Shown here: one piece after another, positions 2,954 through 43,528 of the stretch
Position numbering within the stretch: the first letter of the stretch is position 1
Layout of the letters: every line of letters begins with the position of its first letter
Assembly: GCA_965220935.1 (NCBI GenBank)
Contig: OZ244857.1
Location: forward strand, 3,689,844 to 3,753,843
DNA from: Rhodothermales bacterium
GTDB lineage: Bacteria; Bacteroidota; Rhodothermia; Rhodothermales; Bin80
DNA: 64,000 bases
Reading direction: 5' to 3'
Notes under the pieces: model-generated
Database searches by the model: none
What the model saw: the letters and a program-made list of their open reading frames with translations, nothing else
Told to the model about the DNA's origin: nothing
Program-made: the position numbers and the translations under genes

Positions 2954-5900
2954 TCACTGCACCCGCATCAAGTGTCCAGTGTAGACTGAGGATTGCTGAT
3001 CGTCCAGAGAGGTTGCAATCATCCGATACAGATAGGGCCCCGAGGGCAGATCAAGGTCGGTTAGTTCTAGTTCATGGCGCCATCCTGCGCTCAGTTGTAC
3101 TGCCGGGATGGCCATCACGCGTCGGCCAAGGACATTGAGTACCTCCACCTGCACCTGTGCTGCCCATGGAAGATCAAACACCAGATGCGTGGACCGATCA
3201 AACGGGTTCGGGTAATTGGCATACACCCGAAACTCCTGCGGCACCCCTTGGTTGGCTTCGGTCTGTGTCGGCGATAGGATCTCTATGGTAAACTTCAAAC
3301 TATCTTGCGCCCCATTTTGATCGGTGGCCGTGTAGGTCATCGGGACGGGGGGTGTCACCTCCATGGGGGTTCCATAGATCGTGCGTGATTGCGCATTATA
3401 TCTGAGATTAAACGGAAAATCCAGTAGCGTCAAGGTATATGCAATGGGAGGTACACCGTCTGAGACCTCAGGGAGCACCCATGGCGCAATCGGCTCCCCT
3501 CTTGGATACGACTGATCGGGGATGCTCTTGTTAATAAAGGCCATCTGATAAATCTCCAGACTGAACGTCTGCTCAGTACGCGTTCCTATGCGATCTTGTG
3601 CGGTGTAGGTATAGATTACAGCCTCAGCGACTTCTGAGGTCACCCCGCTTAACGTCCGCGTCTGCGTATCAAAGGTGAGCCCGACCGGTAGCTCAGGCAT
3701 GAGTGTATAGACATACGGTGCAACACCCCCAGTTGCGGCGGGTAGTACGTGATCGGCAAGCGGAATCTGGACGGGGTACCTCTGGTCGCCAACGGTTTCT
3801 GCAAACGTCAAGGACGGAGGCGCTTTGACCTCTATGGTAAAGGTCTGTGTAGCCGACTGGGCATTGGCGTCGGTGACCGTATAGGTAAAGATGGTTGGGG
3901 CCATCACTTCGGTGGGCGTTCCGCTCAGCGTCCGTGCATCAAACTTCAGACCTTTGGGAATCTCTGGGGTGAGGGTATAGCTGTAGGGGCGTGTTCCATA
4001 TCTGGCTTCGGGAAGCTCAAGATCTTTGATGTCTACTCCTACGAGATAGGACTGGTTGGATACCGTCTGGGTAAAGGATAGGTTTGGCACATCGTTGTCC
4101 ACGATGGTGAGCGTAAAGACATATGGGCTTCCGAGATTGTCGCCGGTCAAGGTGATGATGATGGTTTCGTTGGGCTCGTCATCAACATCATCAACGATTG
4201 TGATCAGCAGGTTGTCCGAGATGGTGTAGTCCGCGTCTTGGGTGGCCGTCCCCGAGAGCGTGTAACTCACCGATGGGCGACCGGTCACTTGGACCTGATA
4301 GGTGCCGGCTGTTTCATCAATGCGGGCCGATGCTCTGGTAAATCTAACCTGGGGTTGCGTCGCAGCCCTGGTCACTACATTAGACGGCAGGCTTTCGCCA
4401 ACACGGTTGATTGCACTGACCCGGTAGTGACGGTCAGAATGATGATCCGTGTACGTGGTGCTCGTTTGACGCTCACCAAGTGGGGTCCAAGGCGGCTGCC
4501 CATCCGCGGACCACTGAACCTGATAGCCTGTAATGGCCTCGCCCCCGTTATCGGCCGGCGCTCGCCACGACAGAACAACTGGCAGAGTTGATGTGGCGGT
4601 TAACTCCAGCGGATCACTTGGAATCGCTGGCGTGGCACGATCCACCGTCGTGCCATCATCCACATTGGATACCATCCCGGTTCCTTGTGCGTTGATGGCA
4701 CCGATGCGGTAATGACGTGTCACACCTGGAGATAGTCCACGATGGATGTGGATGGTTTGGGAAGACCCTGAATTGCCCACTAACTCTGTGTAACTGCGGC
4801 CTCCGTCGGTGGAGACCTCAATCCGATAACCGATAATAGCCGCGCCCCCATTGTCGGTTGGAGCGGTCCATGAGACGATCAGTATCGTGCGCCCACTTGG
4901 GGTGACACTTACTGCAGTCGGCGCATCGGGGGCCATGATCGCATCTGTAGTCGCATTCGCTGGAGTAGATGCGCTGGTGCTCTCGCCCACCGAATTACTC
5001 ACATAGACCCGGTAATGGCGCGTTGTAGACGGATTGAGTCCCGTATCGCTGTAGGTGCGATCCGTGCCCGTATGCGCAGGAGAGACATTTGTCCAAGGAG
5101 CATTCCCGTCGGCCGACCACTGAATGCGATAGCCCGTGATGTCTGCGCCCCCGGTGTTGGTGGGCGCGTCCCAGGTCAAATCAATCGCAGTACGCCCGTT
5201 GGCCGTGGCACTGAGATTTCCAGGGGGACCGGGCCTCGTCGCCGTCACCGCAGCGGTGGTGGCATCGTCGGTCGCAGATGCGCTGGTGCTCTCGCCCACC
5301 GAGTTACTGGCATAGACCCGGTAATGCCGCGTTGTAGATGGATCAAGCCCCGTATCCGAGTAGGATCGCAGCGTGCCTGAATGCGCAGGAGAGACATTTG
5401 TCCAAGGAGCATTCCCGTCGGCCGACCACTGAATGCGATAGCTCGTAATACGTGCGCCCCCGTCACTACTCGGGAGATCCCATGTCAAGTTAATCGTGGC
5501 ACGCCCTGACGCGGTGGCGACAAGGTTTTGCGGGGCCCCGGGCCTCACAGCCGCAGCGGTGGTCGCATCATCGGTGTTGGACGGCAAACTCTCTCCCTGC
5601 GCATTGATGGCATACACCCTGTAATGGCGCGTGGCACCGCCCAAAAGTCCCGTATCGCTGTAGGTGGTGCTCGTTGATTCGGTGTCATCCATCACATCCG
5701 CCCAGCCCGCAGTTCCATCCGACGACCACTCAATGTGGTACCCGGTGATGGCCGTGCCCCCAGTGTTGGCTGGCGCCGTCCACGACAGAACAATCGTCGT
5801 TGGCCCATTGGCGGACGCACTCAAACCCGTTGGATCACTGGGAATCGTATTGGTACTGCCATCTACGGTCGTCGCACTCGCTGTAATGGATGCCGTCCCC

Positions 5901-8900
5901 GTATTTGTCGTATTGATTGCGCTCACCCGGTAATGGCGCGTGGACCCTGCACTAAGGCCGCGATCAATAAAGGTAGTGGCTGTACTTTCGGTGTCATCTT
6001 CTAGCTCCGCCCAGTTACTCGTGCCATCGGCCGACCACTCTATCTTGTATCCACTCACCGCACTGCCTCCATTGTTGGACGGCGCCGTCCACGTAAGCAC
6101 AATCAAGGTGCGCCCACTGGCCGTGGCGGTCAAACTGGTTGGATCGCTTGGAACCGTATTGGTGCTGCCATCCACGGTGGTCCCCATCCCGGCGGTAGAC
6201 GCGGCGCCTGTATTCACAGAGTTGATCGCACTGATCTGATAATGCCGCGTGACTCCCGCCGAAAGCCCGCGATGGATATAGGTGGTTTGTGTTGATCGGG
6301 TATTGGTGACCAGAGGGTTGTAATTAGTGCCTCCGTCGGTTGACACATCGATCTTATAGCCGGTAATGGCTTCGCCCCCATTGTCGGCCGGCGCCGTCCA
6401 TGAGACGATCAGTATCGTGCGCCCACTTGGAGTGACACTTACTGCAGTCGGCGCATCAGGCGCCATGGTAGCTTCGGTGGTCGCATTCGCTGAACTTGAC
6501 GCCGTTGCACTCTCGCCCTGTGAGTTGCTGGCATACACCTGATAATCATAGCGCGTGTTTGGACTTCGCCCCGTATGACTGTAGGTCCGCGTCGTGCCCG
6601 TATGCGCAGGATCAACATCACTCCAGCTACTGCCTTGATCAGCCGACCACTGAACGCGGTAGCCCGTGATGTCTGCGCCCCCGGTGTTGGTGGGCGCGTC
6701 CCAGGAGAGAGTAATCGCAGTGCGCCCGTTGGCCGTCGCAGAGAGATTTCCAGGGGGACCAGGTACGGTGTTCATGCCCGCTGTGACGACATTGGACCAG
6801 GTGCCGGTGCCCGCCGAATTGATTGCACCGACCCGGTACTGACGCACGGTGGTGAGCGTTTGACTGGTATGGGCGTAGGTCACCCCATCATCCATAGTGT
6901 CATCTTCAACCTCCGTCCAATTGCTACCCCCGTCCGTGGATTGTTCAATCTCATAGCCCGTGATGACGCTACACTTGTCGCTCACCGCTGGCGCGGTCCA
7001 GGCTAAATTAAAGGTGCTGGTGCCATCACTGGTGGCGGTGAGCCCCGTTGGGGCAGCAGGAACGGCGACGGTGCCCGTGGTCGCATAGGCTTCGTCAGAC
7101 AGGGCACTATCTTCAAATTCATCATCTTCCATATAGACCCGATACCCATAGCAGGTATTGGTATCCAGACCCGTATCGGTGATCATGAGGGTGGAAGCAC
7201 CAACTTGACTATCAAGAGTCCATGAATCTCCGTCATTGTTACTGCGAAATACATAGTAGTTCATCACCGTTCGTCCACTGGGAAGATCTGTTGGGGCAGT
7301 CCAGGCTACATCAATGGATGTTCCCGTATTCTTGGTCGCCGTCACCCCGGTGGGGATCCCCGTCCCGCTACGGGCCACCGCGGTTACCGTGACGACCGCC
7401 GACGGGGGACTCTCAACATCATCCGCATTAACCACTTTGATGCGGTAATAAAACTCCTCCCCTGGCGTGAGCAGACTACTGACATGGCGCTCGGCCGGGG
7501 AATCCGTGTTGTTGGTTGGCTCGGCCAGCACCTCCCAGTTGGTGTTGTCCGTTGACCATTCCAGAATATGCTTTTTGAAGGCCGCACCCCCAAGACTGGT
7601 CGCTGGAGAAGTATCCCATTGAAGCGTAATGGCATGAAAGGCTGTCGTCGTTACTCGTAGACTGGTCGGTGCAGCCGGCACGGTCACCGATGCCTGCAAG
7701 ACACTGGACGCTGCACCCGCGCCACGTGCATTGATCGCGCGAATCCGGTACCAGCGTGTATCCCCCGCCGAGAGCCCTGTATGAGAATAGGTGGTCCCCG
7801 TCTGACTGGCCACCAGCTCGGTAAAGGTCGTTCCGTCTTCAGAGACCTCAATCTTGTAGCCTGTAATCGCGCTCCCCCAGGTCTGCGTCGGTGCGGTCCA
7901 AGACAGTGCAATGCTCGTGGCCGCCGGGGTGGAGGTGAGACTAGTCGGCGCGGCGGGCGCGCCAAAGGTCAGCGAAACGGGGTTGGATAGGTCTTTCTGA
8001 GTTGCTACGGTGGTCCAAAGGTTCACACGATATCCGTAGGTCATGCCAGTGGTCAAGCCATCACTATCGGTATATGTCAATGTAGTGGAGGACAATGAAG
8101 TGGAAAGTGCTCGCCAGCTGTCCCCGCCATCACTGGTCCGAAATATCTGATAACGACTGATCCCCTCACCCATTGGTAGATCCGTTGGGGCCGTCCACGA
8201 AACCGTCACCTCCGTTGCCGATGTCTGCGATGCGGTCACCCCAGTAGGAACGCCCGTTGAAATGAATGCCCCTGCAGTCACGCTTCGGACCGCAGACGCA
8301 GGGCCCGCCCCCGCCGCATTGACCGCACGTGCCCGGTAGTAAAACGACTCACCGGGTGTGAGTAAACTGCTGTAGTGATAAAACTCTCTGGCAGTAGGAG
8401 GTAATGTGACTAACTCCTTCCATGTGGAATTATCGGTAGACCATTCAATGGTGTAATTCGTAATCGCTGAGCTCCCTATACTGCTTGGCACATCCCATAT
8501 TAAAAAGGCTTGATGATACCGAATAGCGGAGGCACCAAAACTTTGTGGCGCGCCGGGCGGGGTCCCGATGGTAATGCTCTGAACTGCGGTCGGTTGGCCT
8601 GTGCCCCGTGCATTGATGGCACGGACCCGGTAATGGCGCACATCGCTGGCCGAGAGTCCCGTGTGCGAATACGTAGTCCCCGTCTGACTGGCGACCAGCT
8701 CGGTAAAGGTGTCGCCATCGGTAGAGACCTCAATCTGATAGCCGGTGACGGCGCTTCCCCAGGTCTGAGCGGGTGCACTCCAAGACAGATCAATACCCAT
8801 GCGATTTGATGCCGACACCGCTGTAAACGAGGTCGGCGCACTGGGCGCACCAACGGTCAGCGAATCGGGCGGCGAAAGATCGTACTCAAAGAACGCATCG

Positions 8901-10588
8901 GTTTGAACGGCCACACGATAGCCGTAGGTATTCCCAACCGTCAACCCGTCATCATCAACATACGAGGATGCTGTGTTGCTGATACTGCCGTCAAGTTGCT
9001 CCCAAAGCTCTCCGCTATTGGCCGTCCGATACACCTGATAGAAGGTAATTCCATCTGTAGTACCCTCCGCATCCGGCACATCCGTCGGGGCCGTCCACGA
9101 CACTGTGACTTCACCTGCCGCCGTCTGCGATGCCCGCACATCAGTGGGCACACCCGCACCACTGGCACGAGAAATCGCCATCGCACTAACAGACGTAGAA
9201 GGCGGGCTCGCCCCCGCAGAATTGACTGCACGCACCCGGTAGTAAAACGTCTGGCCTACGGTCAGCAAACTGCTAAAATGTTCATAGTATCCAGTATTGC
9301 CTGCAGCGGGCTGGTCCACAACCTCCCAGTTGGTATCATCGGTAGACCATTCGATGATATGGCTGGTAATCGGCGGACTGATCGTCGGTACCCTATCCCA
9401 ATTCAGAACGATATTATGAAGCCGCGAGGCACCGGCTGTTAATCCCGTTGGCGCGGCGGGGGGCATGGTGGTTGGGGCCGCGGTCGTGAACGCATCCGAC
9501 CACGCGCCAAAGCCCATCGAATTCTTTGCCCGCACCTGGTACTGACGGCTCGTCGCAATCGTCTGACCCGTATGCGCATACATCACCGCGTCATCGCCCG
9601 TGTCGGCTTCGACATCACTCCACGTATCGCTGCTACTGGCGCGCTCCTGGATCTGATAGCCCGTGATCGCGCTGCACTTGTCAGATGCCGGCGCTGTCCA
9701 ACTCAAATTGAAGGTCGTCCCCGTGCCTGTGGCCGTCAAGCCCGTTGGGGCCGCCGGAGCCGTGACCGTCCCCGTCGTCGCATACGCCGCGTCGGAGAGG
9801 TGGTAATAGGTATAAACCGAACTATCCACAAGCCGGACCCGAAACCCATAGCAGGTGTTCTCGGCCAGGCCCGTGAAGGTTTGTGGGTTTTGGGAAGATA
9901 AAGCGTAGCTACGATATGAATCTCCTTGGTCGTTCGTTTGAAGTACTTGGTATTCAATAACCCCAGTCACTTCGGACGGGGCCGTCCATGAGACCTGAAT
10001 GGAGGTGCCACTTTGCTTGGTTGCGGTGACGCCCGTAGCAATGGCCGTATTATCGCGCACGATCGCGGTCACACTGCTCACATTGGACGGCCCGCTGACC
10101 TCATCATTGGTGTTGGCCACCTTCACACGGTAGTAAAAGGTAGTGCTCGGCGTGAGCCGGTCGCTGACATCTCTAAACTCTGTATTACGGATATTCCCAC
10201 TCACCCTCCCGATCACCGACCAATTGGTGTTGTCGGACGACCGCTCAACGATGAACTCCTTGAAGGTGCTGTTGTTGAGACGTGATTGCGTATACCGATC
10301 CCACATAATTTCGTGTATAAGAAACGCCTCCACCGTGACGCTCACATTTAATGGCGGATCCGGGGCCGCGCTCTGGGGAATGGCGGCTCGCGAAGATGCA
10401 TCTCCATCACGCACATCCTCGCTTGGCTCTACATGCCAGTCCATGACACGGATCCTTTCAGGCGGAGTCTCACTTAGATCACCATGCCCGTCAGTGGACG
10501 CTAATCCATGCTCCTCCAACTGGAGGGACTCATCTAAAAAATGGGGGGGGGGGGGGGGTAGATTCGGAATCCCTGATGTTTGAACCAT
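2954..10588 (-). CDS. giant T9SS-sorted surface adhesin (FN3 repeats, Calx-beta, cadherin-like Ig units, Por C-terminal domain)
   Basis: 2544-aa ORF with 20 or more ~95-100 aa FN3-like units ('L.W..P...GG..ITGY.I.WS.DG..W......T.Y.HTGL...T.HYRV.A.N..G'). One Calx-beta-like unit ('YTLSGTATQDADYT...DDVDDEPNETIIITL'). About 5 'LPEA.GG..PY.YTL.P.LP.GL.F...RTLSGTP' units. C-terminus 'YANYPNPFDRSTHLVFDLPWAAQVQVEVLNVLGRRV...YLYRM'. No signal peptide in this frame. Confidence 0.9.
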   Translation of the reverse strand: MVQTSGIPNLPPPPPHFLDESLQLEEHGLASTDGHGDLSETPPERIRVMDWHVEPSEDVRDGDASSRAAIPQSAAPDPPLNVSVTVEAFLIHEIMWDRYTQSRLNNSTFKEFIVERSSDNTNWSVIGRVSGNIRNTEFRDVSDRLTPSTTFYYRVKVANTNDEVSGPSNVSSVTAIVRDNTAIATGVTATKQSGTSIQVSWTAPSEVTGVIEYQVLQTNDQGDSYRSYALSSQNPQTFTGLAENTCYGFRVRLVDSSVYTYYHLSDAAYATTGTVTAPAAPTGLTATGTGTTFNLSWTAPASDKCSAITGYQIQERASSSDTWSDVEADTGDDAVMYAHTGQTIATSRQYQVRAKNSMGFGAWSDAFTTAAPTTMPPAAPTGLTAGASRLHNIVLNWDRVPTISPPITSHIIEWSTDDTNWEVVDQPAAGNTGYYEHFSSLLTVGQTFYYRVRAVNSAGASPPSTSVSAMAISRASGAGVPTDVRASQTAAGEVTVSWTAPTDVPDAEGTTDGITFYQVYRTANSGELWEQLDGSISNTASSYVDDDGLTVGNTYGYRVAVQTDAFFEYDLSPPDSLTVGAPSAPTSFTAVSASNRMGIDLSWSAPAQTWGSAVTGYQIEVSTDGDTFTELVASQTGTTYSHTGLSASDVRHYRVRAINARGTGQPTAVQSITIGTPPGAPQSFGASAIRYHQAFLIWDVPSSIGSSAITNYTIEWSTDNSTWKELVTLPPTAREFYHYSSLLTPGESFYYRARAVNAAGAGPASAVRSVTAGAFISTGVPTGVTASQTSATEVTVSWTAPTDLPMGEGISRYQIFRTSDGGDSWRALSTSLSSTTLTYTDSDGLTTGMTYGYRVNLWTTVATQKDLSNPVSLTFGAPAAPTSLTSTPAATSIALSWTAPTQTWGSAITGYKIEVSEDGTTFTELVASQTGTTYSHTGLSAGDTRWYRIRAINARGAGAASSVLQASVTVPAAPTSLRVTTTAFHAITLQWDTSPATSLGGAAFKKHILEWSTDNTNWEVLAEPTNNTDSPAERHVSSLLTPGEEFYYRIKVVNADDVESPPSAVVTVTAVARSGTGIPTGVTATKNTGTSIDVAWTAPTDLPSGRTVMNYYVFRSNNDGDSWTLDSQVGASTLMITDTGLDTNTCYGYRVYMEDDEFEDSALSDEAYATTGTVAVPAAPTGLTATSDGTSTFNLAWTAPAVSDKCSVITGYEIEQSTDGGSNWTEVEDDTMDDGVTYAHTSQTLTTVRQYRVGAINSAGTGTWSNVVTAGMNTVPGPPGNLSATANGRTAITLSWDAPTNTGGADITGYRVQWSADQGSSWSDVDPAHTGTTRTYSHTGRSPNTRYDYQVYASNSQGESATASSSANATTEATMAPDAPTAVSVTPSGRTILIVSWTAPADNGGEAITGYKIDVSTDGGTNYNPLVTNTRSTQTTYIHRGLSAGVTRHYQISAINSVNTGAASTAGMGTTVDGSTNTVPSDPTSLTATASGRTLIVLTWTAPSNNGGSAVSGYKIEWSADGTSNWAELEDDTESTATTFIDRGLSAGSTRHYRVSAINTTNTGTASITASATTVDGSTNTIPSDPTGLSASANGPTTIVLSWTAPANTGGTAITGYHIEWSSDGTAGWADVMDDTESTSTTYSDTGLLGGATRHYRVYAINAQGESLPSNTDDATTAAAVRPGAPQNLVATASGRATINLTWDLPSSDGGARITSYRIQWSADGNAPWTNVSPAHSGTLRSYSDTGLDPSTTRHYRVYASNSVGESTSASATDDATTAAVTATRPGPPGNLSATANGRTAIDLTWDAPTNTGGADITGYRIQWSADGNAPWTNVSPAHTGTDRTYSDTGLNPSTTRHYRVYVSNSVGESTSASTPANATTDAIMAPDAPTAVSVTPSGRTILIVSWTAPTDNGGAAIIGYRIEVSTDGGRSYTELVGNSGSSQTIHIHRGLSPGVTRHYRIGAINAQGTGMVSNVDDGTTVDRATPAIPSDPLELTATSTLPVVLSWRAPADNGGEAITGYQVQWSADGQPPWTPLGERQTSTTYTDHHSDRHYRVSAINRVGESLPSNVVTRAATQPQVRFTRASARIDETAGTYQVQVTGRPSVSYTLSGTATQDADYTISDNLLITIVDDVDDEPNETIIITLTGDNLGSPYVFTLTIVDNDVPNLSFTQTVSNQSYLVGVDIKDLELPEARYGTRPYSYTLTPEIPKGLKFDARTLSGTPTEVMAPTIFTYTVTDANAQSATQTFTIEVKAPPSLTFAETVGDQRYPVQIPLADHVLPAATGGVAPYVYTLMPELPVGLTFDTQTRTLSGVTSEVAEAVIYTYTAQDRIGTRTEQTFSLEIYQMAFINKSIPDQSYPRGEPIAPWVLPEVSDGVPPIAYTLTLLDFPFNLRYNAQSRTIYGTPMEVTPPVPMTYTATDQNGAQDSLKFTIEILSPTQTEANQGVPQEFRVYANYPNPFDRSTHLVFDLPWAAQVQVEVLNVLGRRVMAIPAVQLSAGWRHELELTDLDLPSGPYLYRMIATSLDDQQSSVYTGHLMRVQ

Positions 10589-10688
10589 CCTCAGCGAATG
10601 CGCTCAATGGGGAAGTAGGAATTTCTGAGTTCGATAAACATAATTGGACACCCGCAAGGAGCAGTAATAAAATGACAGATCGGTGCAT
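10530..10688 (-). CDS. out-of-frame Sec signal-peptide leader ORF of the adhesin
   Basis: Hand translation from ATG at 10688-10686 gives MHRSVILLLLLAGVQLCLSNSEIPTSPLSAFAEDGSNIRDSESTPPPPPFFR-stop. It enters the C16 tract one nucleotide out of phase with the 2544-aa frame. Confidence 0.6.
   Translation of the reverse strand: MHRSVILLLLLAGVQLCLSNSEIPTSPLSAFAEDGSNIRDSESTPPPPPFFR
10543..10558 (-). repeat. homopolymeric C16 tract (G16 on + strand) between signal-peptide leader and adhesin body
   Basis: Counted directly: 8 g at 10543-10550 plus 8 g at 10551-10558. Encodes the PPPPP run. Flanked on the coding strand by ATCTA and ATTTTTT. Confidence 0.95.
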
Positions 10689-10827
10689 CAATATCATCGG
10701 CAAAATTTAAAATGAAGGGTATAGACTTGATCAATCCTTTTTAGCATTTCTGATATTATCTTCACATTGTGCAGACCATACCCACCGAACTCAGATCCTA
10801 AGATCAGAAACGATTGATAAAAAATTT

Positions 10828-10837
10828 GGGGGGGGGG
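10828..10837 (-). repeat. homopolymeric C10 tract (G10 on +) about 140 nt upstream of the adhesin leader ATG
   Basis: Counted directly (3 g + 7 g). The coding-strand context is gaaaaag-C10-aaatttttt, which resembles the Cn-A-TTTTTT context of the two intragenic tracts. Confidence 0.9.
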
Positions 10838-26145: not shown

Positions 26146-26148
26146 TGA

Positions 26149-34957: not shown

Positions 34958-35493
34958 CGTTTAGATAGAATATTATAAGGTGGAATTCCACATGGAACTG
35001 GGCCATAATATCTACTATCATAACTCAGTGGATGATGAGTGCTGATCAAAAAACATTCCTCTGCCTTAAGAATGTGAGTGCCGATCGCATTGGGTAAACG
35101 CCTGCCTTCGCGATCATGAATATAGATGGGAGCGTTAAGATTCTCAGATCCCTTTACTTGAGTCATCTTTTCGTGGACAATCACCGTATCTCCATGCAAA
35201 GCAACCACCGGTTTGCCAATGCTTGTTGCTCCTCCTGGGCAAACTCCCTGACGCAGATAACCACGCTCAATAGAAAACCTATTGAGCGCCTCAGGCAAAC
35301 ACATGCGGATCACATCTCCCCGTTTGAGGGTTGATGCCTTTGTCATATGATAGAGTCCGAGAGGAAGCGATGTGGATGTATTGACAAAAAAAGATGGACT
35401 CGGTTGATCTACGGGTAGCATGCGAATATAAATCGCAGCCATACCTAAGGCACCTATCACAAGGCATCCTAGATATTGAAGGCGACATATCAT
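34954..35493 (-). CDS. traF: TraF conjugative signal peptidase (S26 family, pilin maturation)
   Basis: 179 aa with 'NTSTSLPLGLY', 'LKRGDVI', 'ERGYLRQGVCPGG', 'GKPVVALHGDTV' and 'SYDSRYYGPV'. Confidence 0.8.
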   Translation of the reverse strand: MICRLQYLGCLVIGALGMAAIYIRMLPVDQPSPSFFVNTSTSLPLGLYHMTKASTLKRGDVIRMCLPEALNRFSIERGYLRQGVCPGGATSIGKPVVALHGDTVIVHEKMTQVKGSENLNAPIYIHDREGRRLPNAIGTHILKAEECFLISTHHPLSYDSRYYGPVPCGIPPYNILSKR

Positions 35494-36218
35494 TGGTCAA
35501 TGACAGTGAAATTCCCCAGTCGGTATCCAACTCCATGTACCTTCAAAATATGCTTTGGATTTTCTGGATCATCATCAAGTTTACATCTGAGAGCATAGGC
35601 ATGTCGATCAATGGTTCGAGTTTTTAGGTCATGAGGAATTTTCAAAACCCATACATTAAATTCAGGTCTTGAAACGGCGTGGCCTTTTCGGAAAGCCATA
35701 TGGTGGAGCACCTTCCACTCCAGTGGTGTGAAATGAACAGGCTCGCTATCTTTATGCGCAATTCTGGCTCTAAAATCGCATTGCGTTTTGCCGACTCGGA
35801 TTTTGGCAGGTTGATGACCATTATAATGTACACGCCTGCAAATCGCTTTGGCCCGAGTCATCAGTTCATGTGCATTGAAGGGTTTTCCCATGTAGTCATC
35901 TGCACCTGCTTCTAATCCGCGCACACGAGCTCCTATTGAATCCATCCCAGAAACAATGATGATCGGGATGTGGCAGCCAAAGTCCCGTACCTGCTTTATC
36001 AGCGTAATGCCATCCATGTCTGGCATGGTGATATCTATGATGGCAAGATCAAGAAAATCTTCAAATTGAATCAAAGATGCTGCGTCACGACCATTGTCTG
36101 TGACTGTGACCTTTGCGCCTTCTTTTTCAAACACATGTCTAATCGCTCTTGTAGTTGCGGCATCATCTTCTGCGATGAGCACCTTGGAAAACAATTTTGG
36201 ACTGGTTGTATACATCAT
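35490..36218 (-). CDS. OmpR-family response regulator
   Basis: Receiver domain 'VLIAEDD...LAIIDITMPDMDG...IIIVSG' followed by winged helix 'LEWKVLHHM...VHGVGYRL'. Confidence 0.9.
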   Translation of the reverse strand: MMYTTSPKLFSKVLIAEDDAATTRAIRHVFEKEGAKVTVTDNGRDAASLIQFEDFLDLAIIDITMPDMDGITLIKQVRDFGCHIPIIIVSGMDSIGARVRGLEAGADDYMGKPFNAHELMTRAKAICRRVHYNGHQPAKIRVGKTQCDFRARIAHKDSEPVHFTPLEWKVLHHMAFRKGHAVSRPEFNVWVLKIPHDLKTRTIDRHAYALRCKLDDDPENPKHILKVHGVGYRLGNFTVIDQ

Positions 36219-36865
36219 GGTAAATCAACGAGAATGTTTTGTGGAAGAATAATCCGAATGACGGTTCCGACTCCAAGGGTGCTGGCAACTTCAACCTTTC
36301 CACCATGAGACCGAACAATATCTTGGACAATGGCAAGCCCCATGCCATTGCCAGAATTCGTAGAGTTTCCTCGGAAATGAGGCTTGAAAATATGCGGTAG
36401 GGTTTTAATTGGAATTCCATATCCACGATCACGAATACGAAGTTGGATCCCATCAGATTGTAACGCCGCTGCAATCACAATTTCAGAGGGTTGGCTGTAT
36501 GTGACTGCGTTATCAAGAAGATTGGTCAATACACGTCCGAAGGCTGAACCGTCACCTATAACAAGAGGTAGGTCGGATGGCAAAAGTAACACGAATGAAT
36601 ACTCTGGATGCAGATTCTCATAGATTGAAACCATGTCTTGAAGTAAGATGGCAAGATCAACATGATTGCGCCCGGTTGATGGAGGACTCTGTTCAAGTAT
36701 ACTGCGCGTGATGTGCATCAGTCGGGTGATTTGATCCGAGATAACTTCATGGCATGCATCACGATCAGGATCATTCGGTTTCATGTTCCGCAGTCGGTCA
36801 TTATAGAGCGAAATAGCGCTGAGAGGTGTTTTCATGTCGTGCGACAATCTAGCAAGTTGATTCAT
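36215..36865 (-). CDS. sensor-less histidine kinase (DHp + catalytic domain only)
   Basis: 216 aa starting at H-box 'LARLSHDMKTPLSAI'. N box 'LTNLLDNAVTY', G boxes 'DRGYGIP' and 'GNGMGLAIV'. No TM or sensor region. Confidence 0.85.
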   Translation of the reverse strand: MNQLARLSHDMKTPLSAISLYNDRLRNMKPNDPDRDACHEVISDQITRLMHITRSILEQSPPSTGRNHVDLAILLQDMVSIYENLHPEYSFVLLLPSDLPLVIGDGSAFGRVLTNLLDNAVTYSQPSEIVIAAALQSDGIQLRIRDRGYGIPIKTLPHIFKPHFRGNSTNSGNGMGLAIVQDIVRSHGGKVEVASTLGVGTVIRIILPQNILVDLP

Positions 36866-37760
36866 GAGCAGAAAATTGATTTAAGTTAGAAGGTGACATA
36901 CGATCATCTCGGCAAAGAGTGATTTGCATTGATAATTAGTTTGATTTGAGGGACATGTATCGCGAGCGACCTCAATATTTTTGTAGCAAAAAAGAGTAAC
37001 ATGCAATTAGTATGTTTTTCGTGGATCAGAGAGAAAAATAATTTATGATAAACATATAATATAAATATAATTAATATATTATTCAAACTAAATTGTAACG
37101 CTACGGTGAAGATTGCGCAAATAACCGTGCTTTTGCCTTCAATGGATGGGAGAATCTCAGTAATGACGTTGAATCATTGATGTGAAAACGATTGAGAGGC
37201 TTTGTGGTCTTTGAAAGATGTGTAGAGAATTTTTCCTTTTACTGAGGTGCACTAAGTCTACCTCTGGTAAGTTTCTAGTCAAGGAAGCAGTTCTTGTTGA
37301 CAGGCGATGCAGGAATCCTATTGTCTATAGACAACATTTCATGGTATCCATACGATAATTTTCTTTTAATTCTATGCCAAATTTCTCATCCTTAATTCCA
37401 ATTTTTAGATGCCAAATTAATCTTATTCTACGGGCCTTTCGTATCGTTACGAAAATCCCGTGTGACATGATCTATTGGTTGAGATCTGTCTGCACAAAAT
37501 AGTTGAATTAAAGTTCGTCATCCATGATGTCCCTCAGTGACTACCTGTTTTACGGTAATGCTGGTAGCTTAAAGTACAACCGACAGAACCACATTTAACT
37601 CATTCATAGTGATGTTCTGGCAATATGTCATCTGCGCTTCATGCCAACAAAATCTCAAAATGAACCTTTGCAATCTTTTGACTGTAAGAAGTGATTAATT
37701 GGTGCGAGAATTTTTTCTTAACTTATTGATTGTCATAGTTCATAAACTCGTTTATTTGTT

Positions 37761-38042
37761 ATGTTAATCCTCAACATTCTCATTTCTTTTTCATTTATTG
37801 GTCACGGATCTGTTGTGGATTCTGATGCAGACACCGGTGATCGTGTACAAACGATGGCCGTGACTTCGGCATTAGACACGCATCATGGACACCCAGACGG
37901 AATTTCATTCCATGGGCGTTCATCCGACACGGGCATTATGACCGAGAGCGCTACCCTTTCGTTAGATCCCTTCACGCGTTCTCTCCCATCTACCCCCCCC
38001 CCCCCATTTTTTCTTCACCCAGTGAGACGGGTGTGCAGCTGA
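37761..38042 (+). CDS. out-of-frame N-terminal leader ORF of the second FN3 adhesin
   Basis: 93-aa ORF 'MLILNILISFSFIGHG...SLPSTPPPPFFLHPVRRVCS' that runs into the C13 tract and terminates 37 nt later. The adhesin frame is open back to 37841. Confidence 0.5.
   Translation: MLILNILISFSFIGHGSVVDSDADTGDRVQTMAVTSALDTHHGHPDGISFHGRSSDTGIMTESATLSLDPFTRSLPSTPPPPFFLHPVRRVCS
37993..38005 (+). repeat. homopolymeric C13 tract between leader ORF and adhesin body
   Basis: Counted directly (8 c + 5 c). The context ATCTA-C13-ATTTTTT is the same flank as the C16 tract of the other adhesin. Confidence 0.95.
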
Positions 38043-41000
38043 GCACACCAGAGCGTGACGGTGAGGATAAGATTGCAGGCGGCGCCCTACTGTCTTCGAA
38101 GCCGACTCCGCTTTCTGGCGCGGATCAAGAACGCTTCCGTGAGACGACGGCAGGCCAACGCCCGCCCGGAAAACCCACGGGCGTAACCGTTGCACCCTAT
38201 CAAACCGGGCGCAATGCACGCGAGACCCTTTCCATTTCCTGGACGGCCAACCCGAATGGGAATAAAGCCATCACAGGGCATGAGATTGAGTGGTCGTCGG
38301 ATGGAACCTCAGACTGGAAGGATCTTCGCACGGTTGCAGGCGGACTAACGGAAACGCTTTTCACTGGCCTCTCGCCAGGCACCACGCGCCACATCCGGAT
38401 CCGAAGTAGGGATGCCGACGGGGATGGTCCCTGGTCCGATGTCGTCTCTGGGAGGACCAACGGGCGAACCCGCCCTGGTCCACCATCTACACTGACAGCA
38501 AAAGTTGACAGCCCTTCCATGATTACTGTTTCATGGACACCCGGCGATGATGGGGGGAGTCCGATCACGGGGTACATAGTACGTGTTTTTCCAGTCAATA
38601 GTTTAAGTACTTTATATACAAAAACCACAGAGCCTTCGGTCAGGAGCCACACGATCACGGGACTTACAGCAGCCACGACATATAGATTGAATGTACAGCC
38701 GCAAAATAAGATTGGCACTGATGGTTCATTAAAGCTAATCTCCGTCACTACCAGTGGCGCGACCATACCCGGCCCACCTGCCTCCCTTACTGCGACGGTT
38801 GCTGGCCCTACAACCATCAATCTTTCATGGGATCCTCCCATAGAAACGGGTGGCAGCCCGATCACGGGGTACATAGTACGTGTTTTTCCAGTCAATAGTT
38901 TAAGTACTTTATATACAAAAACCACAGAGCCTTCGGTCAGGAGCCACACGATCACGGGACTTACAGCAGCCACGACATATAGATTGAATGTACAGCCGCA
39001 AAATAAGATAGGCACTGATGGTTCATTAAAGCTAATCCAAGCCACCACCGATGCCCTCACCGCCCCCGCCGCCCCGACGGGCTTGACAGCGACGGCTTCG
39101 GGCCGCTCCACGATCAACTTGAGTTGGATGGCCCCTTCGGACAACGGCGGCGCGGCCATCACGGGCTACCGGATTGAGTCAAGGCTGCGATCCGAAACCA
39201 GCTTCAGCACTCTCGTCCCTGACACCAAAACCACCAAAACGGACACGACACATACCGGACTCGCGCCATCGACCCAGCGGTTTTACCGGGTCCGTGCCAT
39301 CAATTCCGAAGGAGCGGGGGCGGCATCCAGTTCCGCCACGGCCATCACGGCCGCGGCCACGCGCCCCAGTGCCCCCAGGAACTTGACCGCCACGGCTTCG
39401 GGCCGCACCACGATCATCCTAAACTGGACGGCCCCTGCAGATGACGGCGGCTCAGCCATTACCTTTTATCGCGTTGGCGTGTCAACGAATCAAGGAACTA
39501 GTTGGACCGGTTTGGCCGACGTCCGGGGAGCCACCACCTATTCGCATACGGGGCTTTCGGCGGGGACGCGGCGCGATTACCAGGTGGTGGCGGCCAATAG
39601 TTCGGGGCTGGGCTTTAGTGATCGCTCGAATGTGGTGCATGCCACGACGAACGCAGCCACGGCGCCGGGTGCTCCCAGCAGTGTCACGGCCACGGCCGAC
39701 GGGCAAACGGTGATCAATCTGAGATGGACGCTCCCGGCCGATGATGGGGGCAGGGCCATTACGGGCTACCGGGTGCAGTGGTCGTCCAACGGAAATGCGC
39801 CATGGACGAATGTTACGCCTGCACACACCGGAACAGGTCGCACCTACCGCCATACAGGGCTCAGCGCAGGCACGACGCGACATTACCGGGTCTTTGCCCG
39901 CAACTCGGTGGGTGAGAGCACCAGTGCGTCTGCTGTGGCCACAGCGACCACGGCGGCCGCACCGACCCTCACCACGCCCGCGGCCCCCACGGGGTTAAGG
40001 GCCGAGGCCGAAGGCCCGGAAACGATCAGCCTATCCTGGAACGCACCTACCAATAACGGGGGCGCAGCCATCACCGGCTACCAGATTGAAGTCTCTCCCA
40101 ATGGCACCTCTAACTGGGATGATTTGGTGGCCAATACTGGGTCCACCACGACCGGCTATGTCCATAGGGGCTTGGATGCCGGCACCACGCGTCATTACCG
40201 GGTCTATGCCAGAAATTCGCAGGGAACGGGGGACGCCTCCAATGTGGACGATGCCACGACCCTGCCTGCCACGGTCCCTAAGGCCCCTACGGAGTTGACC
40301 GCTGCGGCCGACGGGCAAACGATCATCAACCTGAACTGGAAAGCCCCGACCAATAGAGGCGGGGTACCGCTTACCGGGTACCAGATTGAAGTCTCGCTCA
40401 CAGGAACAGGGGACACATGGACCAAGGTTACGCCTGCACACACGGGAACGGGGCGCACCTACAGCCATACGGGGCTCACGGCGGGTACGACGCGGCATTA
40501 CCGGGTCTATGCCAGAAATTCAAAGGGGACCAGTGCAGCAGCGTCCAATGTGGCCAGTGCCACGACCACCGCCGCCGCCACAGCCCCGGGTGCCCCGCCC
40601 AATTTACAGGTTTTTCCTACAGGTTTTCATGATGTGAGACTTACCTGGGGACGTCCGCCCAGTGATTCGCCGATCACAGGATACAAGGTGGAATGGTCTA
40701 CCGATGGTGGCACCAACTGGGAGACGTTGATTGGATACGACGATCTGACTCGGACGAGGTACGAGTTTCTCAGTAGTCGCTTGACGCCGGGGAGCGTGTT
40801 TCATTTTCGGGTTCTGGCACGCAGTGCATTGGGAGATAGTGCCCCTTCGGATGCAGTGTCGGTCACAGCCGCCTCGGCCTCTGGGTCAGGCATTGCCACC
40901 AATGTACGGGTGCGCCAGACGTCGGCCAACGCGGCGCAAATTTCCTGGGATGCCCCGACCGATCTTCCTTCCGGCCATCAGACGTTTGGATATAATGTTT

Positions 41001-43528
41001 ACAAATCTGATGATGATGGGGATTTTTGGTCACTGTTCGCACGGGATGTCACCACGACAACCTATACCGATGCTCAGGTATCGGCGGCTAAGACCTATGG
41101 GTATCGGGTTACCACCTGGATTGGTCCGAGCGAGAACGAAGCCCTTCAGAGTCAGTTCTCCGATGCCGCTTTTCTAACGATAACGATTGCTACGGCCACC
41201 GCCCCTGGCGCACCGACGGGATTGACGGCCACGGCCTCTGGCCCGACGATCATCAATCTATCATGGACGGCGCCATCCAATACCGGCGGTGCAGATATTA
41301 CTGGCTATCGGATTGAGGTTTCGCCCAATGGCACGTCAAACTGGACCAATCAGCAGGCCAATACGAGATCCACTGCGACCACCTACGCCCATACAGGACT
41401 CAGTGCAAATACCACGCGGCATTACCGGGTGCGTGCGATCAACTCGGTTAACTCTGGGGCGCCCTCCAATGTGGCCAATGCCACCACCGCAGTCGCGACA
41501 GTGCCGGGCGCGCCGACTGGACTGACCGCAACGGCAGACGGGCAAACCATCATCAACCTGTCGTGGACCGCACCTACCGATAACGGCGGCGCGGCGATTA
41601 CGGGCTACCAGATTGAAGTCTCGCCCAATGGCACAGATACTTGGACCAATCTGGAGGCGAATACCACTGCGACGGCGACGACCTATGCGCACACAGGGCT
41701 TTCGGCAGGCGTGACGCGTCACTATCGGGTCCGTGCGATCAATTCGGTTGGACCGGGGGCTGTATCGGCAACAAGGAGCGCCACCACCGACACGCCCAAT
41801 GCCACCGTGCCCGCTGCGCCCTCGCAGCTCACCGCTACAGCTGCAGGGCGAACCCGCATCAACCTATCGTGGACCGCGCCTAACGATAACGGCGGCGCGG
41901 CCATCACGGGTTATCAGATTGAAGTCTCGCCCAATGGCACCAGTAACTGGTCGGATTTGGAGGCGAATACCACTGCGACTGCGACCACCTATGCGCACAC
42001 AGGGCTTTCGGCAGGCGTGACACGTCATTATCGGGTCCGTGCGATCAATAGCGTTGGCAATAGTGATGCATCCAATACCGCCAGTGCAACCACCGACACG
42101 CCCAATGCCACCGTGCCCGCTGCGCCCTCGCAGCTCACCGCTACAGCTGCAGGGCGAACCATCATCAACCTATCGTGGACGGCACCCTCAGATAATGGGG
42201 GCGCGGCCATTACGGGCTATCAGATTGAAGTCTCTGATACGGGGTCTTGGTCGGAGTTGGCGACGACGACGGTGACCACCTATACACATACCAATCTCGC
42301 GGCGGGGACGACGCAGGTTTATCGAGTCCGTGCGATCAATAGCGTTGGCAATAGCGATGCATCCAATACCGCCAGTGCCACCACCGATGCCCTGGCAACG
42401 CCCGATGCGCCCACAGAGTTAACGATCACAGCGTCGGGGCCATCGACCCTGGTTCTCTCGTGGACCGCGCCCTTAGATGACGGAGGATCTGCGATCACGG
42501 GCTACCGCATTGACACATCGTCTGACGGACAATCGGATTGGACGGTCTTGGTGGCCAGTACACCGTCGACCACGTATACCGTCACCAATCTGCCCCCTCC
42601 TGTCTATTTTCGGGTGATTGCGCTTAATGCCATTGGTCAGGGCACACCATCGGAGGTGGTCAATGTCACGCCCAAGGCCTTATCGCTAAGCAGCACGATC
42701 AGCGATCAAATCTATCCGATTGGGCAGCCCATCGCTCAGGTGATGCTTCCAGAGGCGCGCGATGGCACCGCGCCCTATACCTACACCTTGACACCCGACT
42801 TACCCGCGGGGCTGACGCGCTCGGAGCGCACACTCCGTGGCACCCCTTCAGAACTCACGGCGATGACATCATTTACTTGGGCCGTGCAGGACGCAACTGG
42901 GAGCGTGGCCCGTCAAGACTTCGGCCTTGAGGTCTATCGCATGTCCTTTACAACGCGTGTGGACGATCAGGTGGTTCCAAGGGGGCAACCCATTGGAACG
43001 CTCGTCCTGCCAGAGGTGAGCGGTGGAAAAGACCCGGTCACCTATTCATTCACGGTGTTGTCCCTGCCGAGTGGGCTTTTGTTTGACCTCCCCACCCGAA
43101 CTGTCAGTGGAACACCACTAGCCGTCACGCCGCCAACGCCGATGACATTTAAAGCCGTGGATGTGCATGGCGCGGAAGATAGTCTGAACTTTAGCATTGA
43201 GGTGGTGTCTCCAGTCCATGCAGAAGCGCAGACCGCACGTCCTCACACGTTGACCGTACATGCCAATTATCCGAATCCGTTTACCCGTTCCACACGTATT
43301 GTGTTTGATCTGCCGTGGCCGGCGCAAGTTGAGATAGATATTCTGGATGTCACGGGGCGGCGCGTCTACGCCCATCCTCTGGTGAGTCTGACCGCGGGGT
43401 GGGAGCATGAACTCACACTGGATCAGTTAGACCTGCCTGCGGGGGCCTATCTCTATCGGGTCATGGCCAGCTCGCTGGAAAGTAGCGCATCAGCCGTGCA
43501 GGTCGGTCATTTGATGCGGGTGCAGTGA
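38033..43528 (+). CDS. giant T9SS-sorted FN3-repeat adhesin
   Basis: 1831 aa with about 16 FN3-like units, 2-3 cadherin-like Ig units ('LPEARDGTAPYTYTLTPDLPAGL') and C-terminus 'YPNPFTRSTRIVFDLPWPAQVEIDILDVTGRRV...YLYRV'. The listed start is GTG with no signal peptide. Confidence 0.9.
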   Translation: MQLSTPERDGEDKIAGGALLSSKPTPLSGADQERFRETTAGQRPPGKPTGVTVAPYQTGRNARETLSISWTANPNGNKAITGHEIEWSSDGTSDWKDLRTVAGGLTETLFTGLSPGTTRHIRIRSRDADGDGPWSDVVSGRTNGRTRPGPPSTLTAKVDSPSMITVSWTPGDDGGSPITGYIVRVFPVNSLSTLYTKTTEPSVRSHTITGLTAATTYRLNVQPQNKIGTDGSLKLISVTTSGATIPGPPASLTATVAGPTTINLSWDPPIETGGSPITGYIVRVFPVNSLSTLYTKTTEPSVRSHTITGLTAATTYRLNVQPQNKIGTDGSLKLIQATTDALTAPAAPTGLTATASGRSTINLSWMAPSDNGGAAITGYRIESRLRSETSFSTLVPDTKTTKTDTTHTGLAPSTQRFYRVRAINSEGAGAASSSATAITAAATRPSAPRNLTATASGRTTIILNWTAPADDGGSAITFYRVGVSTNQGTSWTGLADVRGATTYSHTGLSAGTRRDYQVVAANSSGLGFSDRSNVVHATTNAATAPGAPSSVTATADGQTVINLRWTLPADDGGRAITGYRVQWSSNGNAPWTNVTPAHTGTGRTYRHTGLSAGTTRHYRVFARNSVGESTSASAVATATTAAAPTLTTPAAPTGLRAEAEGPETISLSWNAPTNNGGAAITGYQIEVSPNGTSNWDDLVANTGSTTTGYVHRGLDAGTTRHYRVYARNSQGTGDASNVDDATTLPATVPKAPTELTAAADGQTIINLNWKAPTNRGGVPLTGYQIEVSLTGTGDTWTKVTPAHTGTGRTYSHTGLTAGTTRHYRVYARNSKGTSAAASNVASATTTAAATAPGAPPNLQVFPTGFHDVRLTWGRPPSDSPITGYKVEWSTDGGTNWETLIGYDDLTRTRYEFLSSRLTPGSVFHFRVLARSALGDSAPSDAVSVTAASASGSGIATNVRVRQTSANAAQISWDAPTDLPSGHQTFGYNVYKSDDDGDFWSLFARDVTTTTYTDAQVSAAKTYGYRVTTWIGPSENEALQSQFSDAAFLTITIATATAPGAPTGLTATASGPTIINLSWTAPSNTGGADITGYRIEVSPNGTSNWTNQQANTRSTATTYAHTGLSANTTRHYRVRAINSVNSGAPSNVANATTAVATVPGAPTGLTATADGQTIINLSWTAPTDNGGAAITGYQIEVSPNGTDTWTNLEANTTATATTYAHTGLSAGVTRHYRVRAINSVGPGAVSATRSATTDTPNATVPAAPSQLTATAAGRTRINLSWTAPNDNGGAAITGYQIEVSPNGTSNWSDLEANTTATATTYAHTGLSAGVTRHYRVRAINSVGNSDASNTASATTDTPNATVPAAPSQLTATAAGRTIINLSWTAPSDNGGAAITGYQIEVSDTGSWSELATTTVTTYTHTNLAAGTTQVYRVRAINSVGNSDASNTASATTDALATPDAPTELTITASGPSTLVLSWTAPLDDGGSAITGYRIDTSSDGQSDWTVLVASTPSTTYTVTNLPPPVYFRVIALNAIGQGTPSEVVNVTPKALSLSSTISDQIYPIGQPIAQVMLPEARDGTAPYTYTLTPDLPAGLTRSERTLRGTPSELTAMTSFTWAVQDATGSVARQDFGLEVYRMSFTTRVDDQVVPRGQPIGTLVLPEVSGGKDPVTYSFTVLSLPSGLLFDLPTRTVSGTPLAVTPPTPMTFKAVDVHGAEDSLNFSIEVVSPVHAEAQTARPHTLTVHANYPNPFTRSTRIVFDLPWPAQVEIDILDVTGRRVYAHPLVSLTAGWEHELTLDQLDLPAGAYLYRVMASSLESSASAVQVGHLMRVQ
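38561..39037 (+). repeat. 297-bp-period intragenic duplication (two 180-bp segments, 1 mismatch)
   Basis: 38561-38740 and 38858-39037 are identical except 'aagattggc' versus 'aagataggc'. Both encode 'PITGYIVRVFPVNSLSTLYTKTTEPSVRSHTITGLTAATTYRLNVQPQNKIGTDGSLKLI'. The segment is visibly AT-richer than the rest of the gene. Confidence 0.9.

Follow-up and report, generated by a model that had tools for sequence, protein, structure and literature searches.

A C13 tract between the leader and body of a giant fibronectin-repeat adhesin gene in a Rhodothermales bacterium is a plausible phase-variation switch in a family-wide cassette

A 64,000-nucleotide (nt) stretch of contig OZ244857.1 from a Rhodothermales bacterium (hereafter, the window) carries a run of 13 cytosines between a short leader open reading frame (ORF) and the ORF of a giant fibronectin type III (FN3) protein, designated adhesin 2. 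Reading this tract as a switch is plausible, and we put at roughly 60% the probability that C13 is a hypermutable contingency locus near the 5′ end of the coding sequence for an ~1,922-amino-acid (aa) FN3 surface protein exported via Sec and then via the type IX secretion system (T9SS). The tract would separate the leader, comprising the start codon, signal peptide, and spacer, from the mature protein, and slipped-strand mispairing in replication would cause cytosines to be gained or lost. Tracts of C11, C14, or C17 would be ON: the leader would be joined, and the protein would be secreted and held by its C-terminal sorting domain (CTD) with the variable N-terminal tip outward. All other lengths would be OFF, with translation ending 6-12 codons past the tract and the remaining GTG start, which lacks a signal peptide, giving a cytoplasmic product. 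From the frame logic, an in-frame allele, tract polymorphism between strains, pure C runs, the occurrence of locked variants, and a conserved design, we infer slippage as the mechanism; reversibility, the switching rate, ON/OFF expression of the protein, and the adhesive function of the adhesins are likewise presumed. The adhesin 2 locus comprises the following features.

37761..37992, forward strand: adhesin 2 leader, with the start codon, a signal-peptide-like core (MLILNILISFSFIGHG, with putative cleavage before S), and an ~60-aa spacer running into the tract (ORF list, translation, hydrophobicity)
37988..37992, forward strand: 5′ flank ATCTA of the tract, of which TCTA is invariant family-wide
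37993..38005, forward strand: C13 homopolymeric tract, the presumed slippage site, of the same length in a European Nucleotide Archive (ENA) record (L063)
38006..38012, forward strand: 3′ flank ATTTTTT of the tract, of which ATTTTT is invariant family-wide
38006..43528, forward strand: mature adhesin 2 frame, with an acidic linker, ~14 FN3 repeats, He_PIG, and the CTD (Pfam fn3 6.9e-174, 14 stretches; frame analysis)
38023..38025, forward strand: TGA closing the second OFF frame (C12, C15, C18; frame analysis)
38040..38042, forward strand: TGA closing the leader ORF in the assembled C13 state (frame analysis)
43268..43471, forward strand: T9SS type A CTD of adhesin 2 (TIGR04183, 29.6 bits)

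The leader ORF (37761..38042) starts with ATG and encodes 93 aa, and C13 begins 232 nt past this ATG. The adhesin 2 ORF (38033..43528) encodes 1831 aa from a GTG start, with its frame open back to 37841 (TGA at 37838-37840). A first-pass annotation of the window had described C13 at 37993-38005 between ATCTA and ATTTTTT, and a leader lying out of register with an 1831-aa frame open back to 37841, all of which was reproduced here. It had also proposed that C14, C11, or C17 would join the leader to adhesin 2. When the locus was rebuilt in silico with 9-18 C, leader and adhesin were fused by C11, C14, and C17 only, as proposed, to give 1921-1923 aa (1922 aa at C14), and every non-fusing length led to a stop 6-12 codons past the tract and a product of 86-94 aa. 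Candidate leader-adhesin junction peptides of the ON state read …SLPSTPPPPIFSSPSETGVQLSTPER… and …DSESTPPPPHFLDESLQ…. Two properties of a translational contingency locus, a homopolymer of at least ~8 nt in the 5′ coding region and a length that decides between the full ORF and an early stop, were both found at adhesin 2. The C runs are pure and are read as CCC codons throughout. Furthermore, the window contains three C/G runs of at least 10 nt (C10, C13, and C16), compared with 0.03 expected from the shuffled window, and no run of 7-9 nt anywhere in its 64 kb; the three C tracts are clear outliers.

The C16 run belongs to a second giant gene, adhesin 1, whose tract lies 27.4 kb from that of adhesin 2 on the opposite strand and is out of frame in the window. 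The C10 run lies upstream of the same gene. Comparisons below refer to the strain of the window as A and to a close relative as B.

2954..10588, reverse strand: adhesin 1 OFF-state ORF, 2544 aa, with an FN3 array and a T9SS CTD at ~3017-3214 (ORF list, Pfam, TIGR04183)
10543..10558, reverse strand: adhesin 1 tract, C16, ON at C12/C15/C18, with flanks ATCTA at 10559-10563 and ATTTTTT at 10536-10542 (run scan, frame editing)
10559..10697, reverse strand: adhesin 1 leader (MILMHRSVILLLLLAGVQLCLS...), with a possible ATG at 10697 or 10688 (Kyte-Doolittle maximum 2.95; fused to the adhesin in the ENA copy L065)
10828..10837, reverse strand: third tract, C10 (AAAAAG-C10-AAATTTTTTAT), 139 nt 5′ of the adhesin 1 leader ATG; C13 in strain B (run scan, strain comparison)

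Pfam identified FN3 arrays with He_PIG domains in both giant ORFs, comprising 14 stretches in adhesin 2 and 19 in adhesin 1. The view that both giants are T9SS cargo was borne out by TIGR04183, which detected a T9SS type A CTD at 29.6 bits in adhesin 2 and 24.7 bits in adhesin 1 (cutoff, 23); a PF18962 match taken alone was below its cutoff (20.5 versus 27). A 1176-aa neighbour (18014-21544) with Calx-beta/He_PIG/SprB matches also ends in a T9SS type A CTD, and the TIGR04183 range across the three proteins is 24.7-30.9 bits. Sec-dependent crossing of the inner membrane precedes T9SS export, and T9SS cargo needs a Sec signal. The 11-residue Kyte-Doolittle maxima of the leaders are 2.2-2.95 (2.37 for adhesin 2 and 2.95 for adhesin 1), and small residues occupy positions -3/-1 of the putative cleavage sites (GHG before S and CLS before N). 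The products of the alternative starts reach 0.71 (GTG 38033) and 0.2 (ATG 10588), and the earlier statement that the GTG-start adhesin 2 product lacks a signal peptide is upheld by its maximum of 0.71 versus 2.37 in the leader. Given that the hydrophobic core occurs only in the leaders and that T9SS cargo requires Sec, the leaders would be the functional N-termini, and the assembled adhesin 2 state would be functionally OFF. T9SS machinery genes were absent from the 64-kb window. The G+C content of the adhesin bodies is 58-59%, versus ~46% around them.

Tract length was then compared among copies of the locus. ENA contig ctg52282_12x_l (ERZ25072152) equals the window over 26215-46865, C13 included, and over 5290-26019 (20.7 kb) it shows 0 mismatches and a single gap. 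The gap falls within the adhesin 1 tract: C16 in the window, C15 in the ENA copy (L065, 5254-5268). Proteins of the window are found on two contigs, of 1.67 Mb and 4,076,850 bp, so that a second assembly of the ctg52282 strain is the probable source of the window. The C15 copy of adhesin 1 is in frame and is called as one 2577-aa ORF starting MHRSVILLLLLAGVQL…. The claim that both adhesins are out of frame is thus true of the window but not robust, because adhesin 1 is in frame in the ENA copy and the source is 12x and long-read-style. Were both adhesins switchable, four surface states would follow.

Strain B (ERZ25070844, ctg10149_1281x_c) is a 4.15-Mb circular contig with flanks 98-99% identical, and the adhesin 2 leader is conserved in it at 98-99%. 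At adhesin 2, an interrupted CCCTCCCCCC replaces C13, so that the site reads ATCT-CTACCCTCCCCCC-ATTTTT-AG; this allele is out of frame as well, and 1 added T would fuse the frames. The other tracts of strain B are C13 at the upstream site (C10 in the window) and ATCTAA-C16 at adhesin 1 (ATCTA-C16 in the window). All three orthologous tract sites therefore differ in length or integrity between strains A and B, and two further contigs, C and D (~95% identical), carry C10 and C9. Polymorphism among near-identical genomes, a further property of contingency loci, was thus observed, with a technical origin possible for the C15/C16 case.

These length differences bear on the first rival explanation, according to which the true tract is in frame (e.g., C14) in nearly all cells and the assembled length reflects a homopolymer error in a low-coverage long-read consensus, with no real OFF population. 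A C13-16 run is intrinsically unstable whether or not the called length is off by one. Consistent with an artefact, the contig name carries 12x, and contig names suggest metaMDBG-style naming; metaMDBG homopolymer-compresses reads, and homopolymers are named as its main residual error (PMC11392814). A single C, in the adhesin 1 tract, separates the window from the ENA copy of its strain, and most OFF alleles are precisely 1 base below ON. However, C13 is the same in the window and the ENA record, and adhesin 2 of strain B is out of frame without any run longer than C6/T5, at 1281x. The 3-nt strain difference (C10 versus C13) and the tract interruption are also unlike +/-1 errors, and two separate-sample JGI contigs show C9 OFF alleles and C14/G9 runs. 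We consider this explanation unlikely.

To define the distribution of the cassette, ATCTA-C(8 or more)-ATTTTTT was scanned for in one genome per species (GTDB) and in JGI metagenome contigs. The GTDB scan yielded 26 places, of which 3 were related, all in one Rhodothermales metagenome-assembled genome (MAG; OZ241742.1). There, three paralogous FN3 genes each carry ATCTA-C9-ATTTTTTAAATGAG past a short signal-like leader, each 1 C short of frame. The MAG shares with the window both the cassette and 43-49% identical adhesins, and the label Rhodothermales-like used below is drawn from it. None of the 36 exact-flank matches in JGI metagenome contigs adjoined FN3 genes, and they were treated as chance or unrelated. 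The cassette search of other genomes that the first-pass annotation had recommended was therefore productive in the three MAG paralogues, but all JGI and the remaining GTDB exact-flank matches were unrelated. A protein search with the adhesin 1 ON-state N-terminus (162 aa) returned zero matches, the N-terminal linkers being too divergent, and relatives were retrieved instead by a family profile of the post-tract N-termini.

The relatives so retrieved vary in their tracts. Two loci from other genomes of the strain B sample carry GTCTA-C10 (L067) and GTCTA-C9 (L068), each followed by ATTTTTTCTTCACCCAGTGAG, and both are OFF. The L070 cassette reads TTCT-C6TC5-ATTTTTTAAATGAG. JGI contig L071 has a cassette pair 322 nt apart, TTCTA-C9-ATTTTTTAACG… and ATTCTA-C9-ATTTTTTAGATAACG…, and JGI contig L069 has CCT CCT GTA TTT GTA GAT instead of a coding tract and is thereby locked ON. 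Other runs in L069 are a C14 (1581-1594) 110 nt 5′ of the ATG and a G9 (2742-2750), which lies within the FN3 array and cuts the ORF short. G/C tracts thus occur at several positions in the family. Because tracts were seen in two JGI contigs from separate samples (L069 and L071), they are not peculiar to the long-read-style assemblies of the ERZ records.

Overall, about 10 cassettes, drawn from six or more genomes or contigs and all within one FN3/T9SS family, have the core TCTA-Cn-ATTTTT, the only DNA conserved around the tract. Since every cassette found, whether in the window, strain B, contigs C and D, the Rhodothermales MAG, or the two JGI contigs, belongs to this one paralogous family, the cassette appears to be mainly an inherited family feature of a Rhodothermales-like lineage. 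When four independent cassettes were anchored at the tract, conservation was confined to TCTA immediately 5′ of the tract, ATTTTT immediately 3′ of it, and two scattered single positions. The 5′ flank is read in a frame that varies by member (TCT ACC, Ser-Thr; CTA CCC, Leu-Pro), and the post-tract sequence is read as ATT TTT TCT in adhesin 2 versus the family norm CAT TTT TTA, of which the first C belongs to the tract. As the flanks are read in differing frames, it is at least in part the DNA itself that is conserved. In most members, the flank 3′ of the tract, ATTTTTTA(G/A)ATGA, reads HFL(D/N)E when ON and carries TAG/TAA in one of the OFF frames and TGA in the second, ending the OFF product after 2-4 codons. 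Six adhesin-attached cassettes of the ATTTTT(T)A type have stops within 2-8 codons in both OFF frames, and three of the ATTTTTTCTTCACCC type (adhesin 2 and contigs C and D) have OFF-frame stops at 6 and 12 codons.

Sequence identity changes sharply at the tracts, as the following comparisons show for adhesin 2.

300 nt upstream of the adhesin 2 tract: A versus B, 98%; A versus C, ~58% (background)
First 150 nt downstream of the adhesin 2 tract: A versus B, 58%; A versus C, 84%
Next 300 nt downstream of the adhesin 2 tract: 86-92% in all pairs

Similarly, strains A and B are 99.4% identical at adhesin 1 up to the tract, unalignable for ~730 nt past it, and then 93% identical. These sharp A/B drops suggest that leaders and N-terminal tips have been re-assorted between paralogues or strains with the tract as the breakpoint. 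It had been noted previously that the two adhesin tracts share flanks in otherwise unrelated surroundings. Beyond the 5+7 nt, the DNA of the two genes is indeed unalignable, but the proteins are paralogues of the FN3/T9SS family with weakly alignable N-terminal linkers. The accompanying notion of a portable switch module fits only in part: all cassettes lie in the one paralogous family, and modularity is partial, the tract serving as a crossover point that re-assorts leaders and N-terminal segments. A more extended model, which we regard as possible but doubtful, is that the cassette doubles as a slippage switch and a microhomology junction. Promoter-leader units and adhesin tips would be recombined there, leaving orphan cassettes upstream (window 10828-10837; L071 2503-2511), and the flanks would be selected as DNA for slippage context and two-frame OFF stops. 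In free-living bacteria, T9SS adhesins would then combine phase variation with combinatorial variation of antigens or ligands, and adhesins located in a conjugative type IV secretion system (T4SS) region might be switchable mating or aggregation adhesins.

Gene decay is a second rival, in which the tract is a mutational hotspot that inactivates a dispensable giant gene and the frameshift is a step toward a pseudogene. Both adhesin frames of the window are otherwise intact (1,831 and 2,529 codons) and one adhesin 1 allele is in frame, which counts against decay. Homologues do carry disruptions outside the tract: 489 + 707 aa in strain B, 399 + 1251 in contig C, 200 + 91 + 1505 in contig D, and an in-frame TGA in L071. 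Orphan CTD fragments within the window, and IS66 and TnpB adjoining the contig D copy, are also compatible with decay. Nevertheless, pure C runs with the same flanks have been kept across species while both sides diverged beyond alignment, and the flank holds OFF-frame stops, which argues that the cassette itself is maintained. Decay is an improbable account of the tract.

A third rival is recoding, in which slippage of RNA polymerase along the C run, or frameshifting by ribosomes on CCC codons plus U6, would restore the frame in a share of transcripts or translation events, so that OFF genotypes would yield adhesin constitutively at a low level. CCC-C contexts and long homopolymers are prone to shifting and slippage. 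An invariant T5-6 run directly follows the tract, and 7 or 8 OFF alleles (adhesin 2, strain B adhesins 1 and 2, contig C, the three MAG copies, and L071) need the same +1 nt / -1 frame correction. Three alleles (window adhesin 1, contig D, and L070), however, need the opposite shift, one is in frame, and the 6:3:1 split is not significant. The 121-nt stretch 37940-38060 over the tract folds at z = -2.75, mainly because of a hairpin 3′ of the tract, but the U run ends ~17 nt before this hairpin (38029-38048) begins, the hairpin is not kept intact in contigs C and D despite their shared post-tract sequence, and 90-nt stretches directly downstream fold at z = -1.3 and -1.6, which is not unusual. 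The leader frame reads CCA UUU UUU CUU, without a canonical X XXY YYZ heptamer. Taken together, recoding seems very improbable. Its most specific form, a programmed -1 frameshift site of the dnaX/insertion sequence type, was rejected, as the heptamer is absent from the leader frame and the hairpin is not conserved and is badly spaced, such sites calling for a structure 5-9 nt downstream.

Although phase variation by slippage remains our preferred explanation, several points weigh against it. The source contig is labelled 12x and is long-read-style, so lengths of C13-C16 may be off by one and both the exact length and the OFF call are uncertain; the C15/C16 discrepancy could likewise be technical. 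The adhesin 2 leader has no positively charged N-region, and the signal peptides were judged by hydrophobicity alone. Relatives in strain B, contigs C and D, and L071 contain extra frameshifts or stops; some family members are decaying, which is common for contingency genes and is also predicted by pure decay. Finally, nine or ten of the eleven coding-tract observations are OFF: 1 is ON, 7 or 8 need +1 nt, and 3 need -1 nt. Collapsing the three MAG copies into one gives a 6:3:1 phase split, which does not differ significantly from equal thirds; still, the +1 bias is compatible with under-called lengths or with slippage of RNA polymerase or the ribosome.

The upstream C10 tract of adhesin 1 differs in kind from the coding tracts. 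The homologous position in L071 carries TTCTA-C9-ATTTTTT, and the adhesin 1 upstream-tract block is homologous to the block of the first L071 cassette (local alignment z = 6.8). Both blocks share a conserved TATCTTTG, a match to the Bacteroidetes-type -7 consensus TAnnTTTG. In the window, TATCTTTG lies at 10918-10925, 3′ of the ATG of an 87/88-aa ORF that covers the C10 tract. The tract itself lies 44-80 nt 3′ of two TAnnTTTG motifs, one of them kept in L071, although this consensus may not be that of the present lineage. Because the motif is conserved and lies 3′ of the ATG of the 87/88-aa ORF, the tract is more likely a 5′ untranslated region (UTR) element than coding, and it is probably located in the 5′ UTR rather than in a coding region or promoter spacer. 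The 87/88-aa ORF (10694-10957, reverse strand) was rejected as a real gene and is probably spurious: no Pfam match was found, a homologue occurs only in strain B, and its ATG is 5′ of the promoter-like motif. It stays in frame from C10 to C13, and its stop overlaps the adhesin 1 leader ATG (ATGA).

Upstream of adhesin 2, a scan for sigma-70 promoters and terminators gave nothing above shuffled controls, and no TAnnTTTG motif was found within 700 nt of the leader. The intergenic region 5′ of adhesin 2 contains a perfect 14-nt palindrome, TTGTCTATAGACAA (37322-37335), that shares positions with the best-scoring sigma-70-like hexamers; in strain B, 19 nt are inserted immediately next to the palindrome. 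This palindrome may be an operator.

In both strains, the adhesins are interleaved with a VirB-type T4SS, relaxase, and VirD4 region that is chromosomal (4.15-Mb circular contig). The T4SS is complete (12200-17640, 34010-36865, and 44217-49255), comprising TrbC/VirB2, VirB3, VirB4, TrbL/VirB6, VirB8, CagX/VirB9, TrbI/VirB10, VirB11, and VirD4, and the region also holds a MobP-type relaxase, an S26 peptidase, and a small histidine kinase/OmpR-type regulator pair. A plasmid origin was rejected, because blastn searches of PLSDB with the T4SS block and with the switch region gave zero matches and the region is chromosomal. T4SS linkage was also rejected as a family trait, as relatives in other genomes do not adjoin T4SS genes. 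Exact look-ups of the window VirB4 ORF and the 2544-aa adhesin 1 product found neither on record, probably owing to differing start calls.

Other observations concern the remainder of the window. The 1176-aa T9SS neighbour is split in strain B (L066) into 587 + 557 aa by a 1-nt deletion at window position 19736, outside a homopolymer, which shows ordinary surface-gene decay beside the tract-based changes. Two orphan fragments on the reverse strand (24700-24883 and 55649-55822), outside long ORFs, are 73-81% identical to adhesin 1 CTD DNA and look like remnants of lost cargo genes. A 163-nt inverted repeat (2171-2333 / 55246-55408; 94% complementary) has arms 52.9 kb apart, one ~620 nt past the adhesin 1 3′ end and the other ~240 nt from the orphan CTD at 55649-55822. 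At 50575-53330 are two full tandem AAA-ATPase paralogues (AAA_16/AAA_22; 402 and 394 aa) that repeat every 1276 nt, with 79-97% segment identity, after which a third, apparently truncated copy begins. Type I restriction-modification hsdS and hsdM, a DNA methylase with an HATPase_c_3 protein, and a TnpB/Cas12f-like gene occupy 24928-27708 and 29481-33700, and the hsdM protein falls in a 90%-identity cluster with 5-6 copies per genome. An eight-gene same-strand cluster spans 56236-63193, in which 5 of the 7 ORFs scanned have no Pfam match and one has a weak sub-threshold DUF4402; its last gene is of the MotA/ExbB type, and in L069 the adhesin homologue directly follows two ExbD genes.

Known contingency loci offer close parallels. 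In Neisseria gonorrhoeae, pilC has a poly-G tract in the signal-peptide-coding region, and the Neisseria Opa proteins have CTCTT repeats in the leader-peptide coding region. Meningococcal hmbR, hpuA, nalP, and mspA have poly-G/C tracts within the ORF (PMC3786947, PMC3723659). Like the present tracts, the pilC and poly-G/C tracts are G/C homopolymers near the 5′ end of the gene for a surface protein that is exported (here, predicted to be), with length toggling between full-length product and early stop and close strains differing. They differ in belonging to host-adapted Proteobacteria and to outer-membrane or autotransporter proteins, with tracts usually of 7-14 nt; no family-wide flank motif is reported for them, nor is a module-junction role known. 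The present adhesins, by comparison, come from an uncultured T9SS-bearing lineage and are FN3 cargo of 1.9-2.6 kaa with tracts up to C16. The Opa system is similar in that paralogous surface adhesins each have an independent repeat between start codon and mature protein and recombination among paralogues reshuffles the variable parts, but its repeat is a pentanucleotide inside the signal peptide itself and its proteins are small beta-barrels.

The fim promoters of Bordetella pertussis contain poly-C stretches. These long runs, of ~13-15 nt, vary among isolates and control a surface adhesin, as is proposed for the present tracts, and they are a possible analogy for the C10/C13 upstream of adhesin 1. 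Unlike the adhesin 2 tract, which is translational, the fim promoter tract acts on transcription, and the upstream C10 lies 44-80 nt past promoter-like motifs rather than in a spacer. Homopolymeric tracts of B. pertussis have been described (PMC1891110). In Listeria monocytogenes, the 5′ poly-A tract of inlA mutates at ~1000-fold the point-mutation rate (Orsi et al. 2010, PMC2831843). This 5′ homopolymer truncates a surface adhesin reversibly within a few codons, but it is an A7 tract in a Firmicute, and the protein is sortase-anchored. SprB of Flavobacterium johnsoniae is a giant T9SS-secreted repeat adhesin of the Bacteroidota. It shares with the adhesins here a very large size, repeat domains, a place at the cell surface, and a T9SS sorting domain at the C-terminus, together with a Sec signal at the N-terminus that is putative in the adhesins here, and the 1176-aa neighbour has SprB/He_PIG repeats; however, SprB has a type B CTD and no known homopolymer control, whereas the present proteins are built of FN3 repeats and end in a type A CTD.

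Homopolymer contingency loci are textbook features of host-adapted pathogens such as Neisseria, Haemophilus, Campylobacter, and Bordetella. To our knowledge, homopolymer switching is hardly documented for environmental Bacteroidota or Rhodothermota-like bacteria or for T9SS cargo, and a literature search found no report tying homopolymer phase variation to T9SS cargo or to Rhodothermales(-like) bacteria. The loci of Neisseria, Campylobacter, Bordetella, and Listeria match in mechanism (PMC3786947, PMC8355987, PMC1891110, PMC2831843). The adhesin 2 tract would be a known kind of contingency locus in a new lineage and gene family, to which a family-wide cassette with two-frame OFF stops and use as a crossover point are added. 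Such genes are routinely mis-annotated in MAGs as truncated or as pseudogenes, and their tract lengths sit where long-read consensus is least reliable; the conserved cassette offers a simple search key for further members. If the switch is real, random switching and recombination of giant surface adhesins take place in free-living bacteria that have not been cultured, which would bear on phage evasion, particle attachment, and aggregation.

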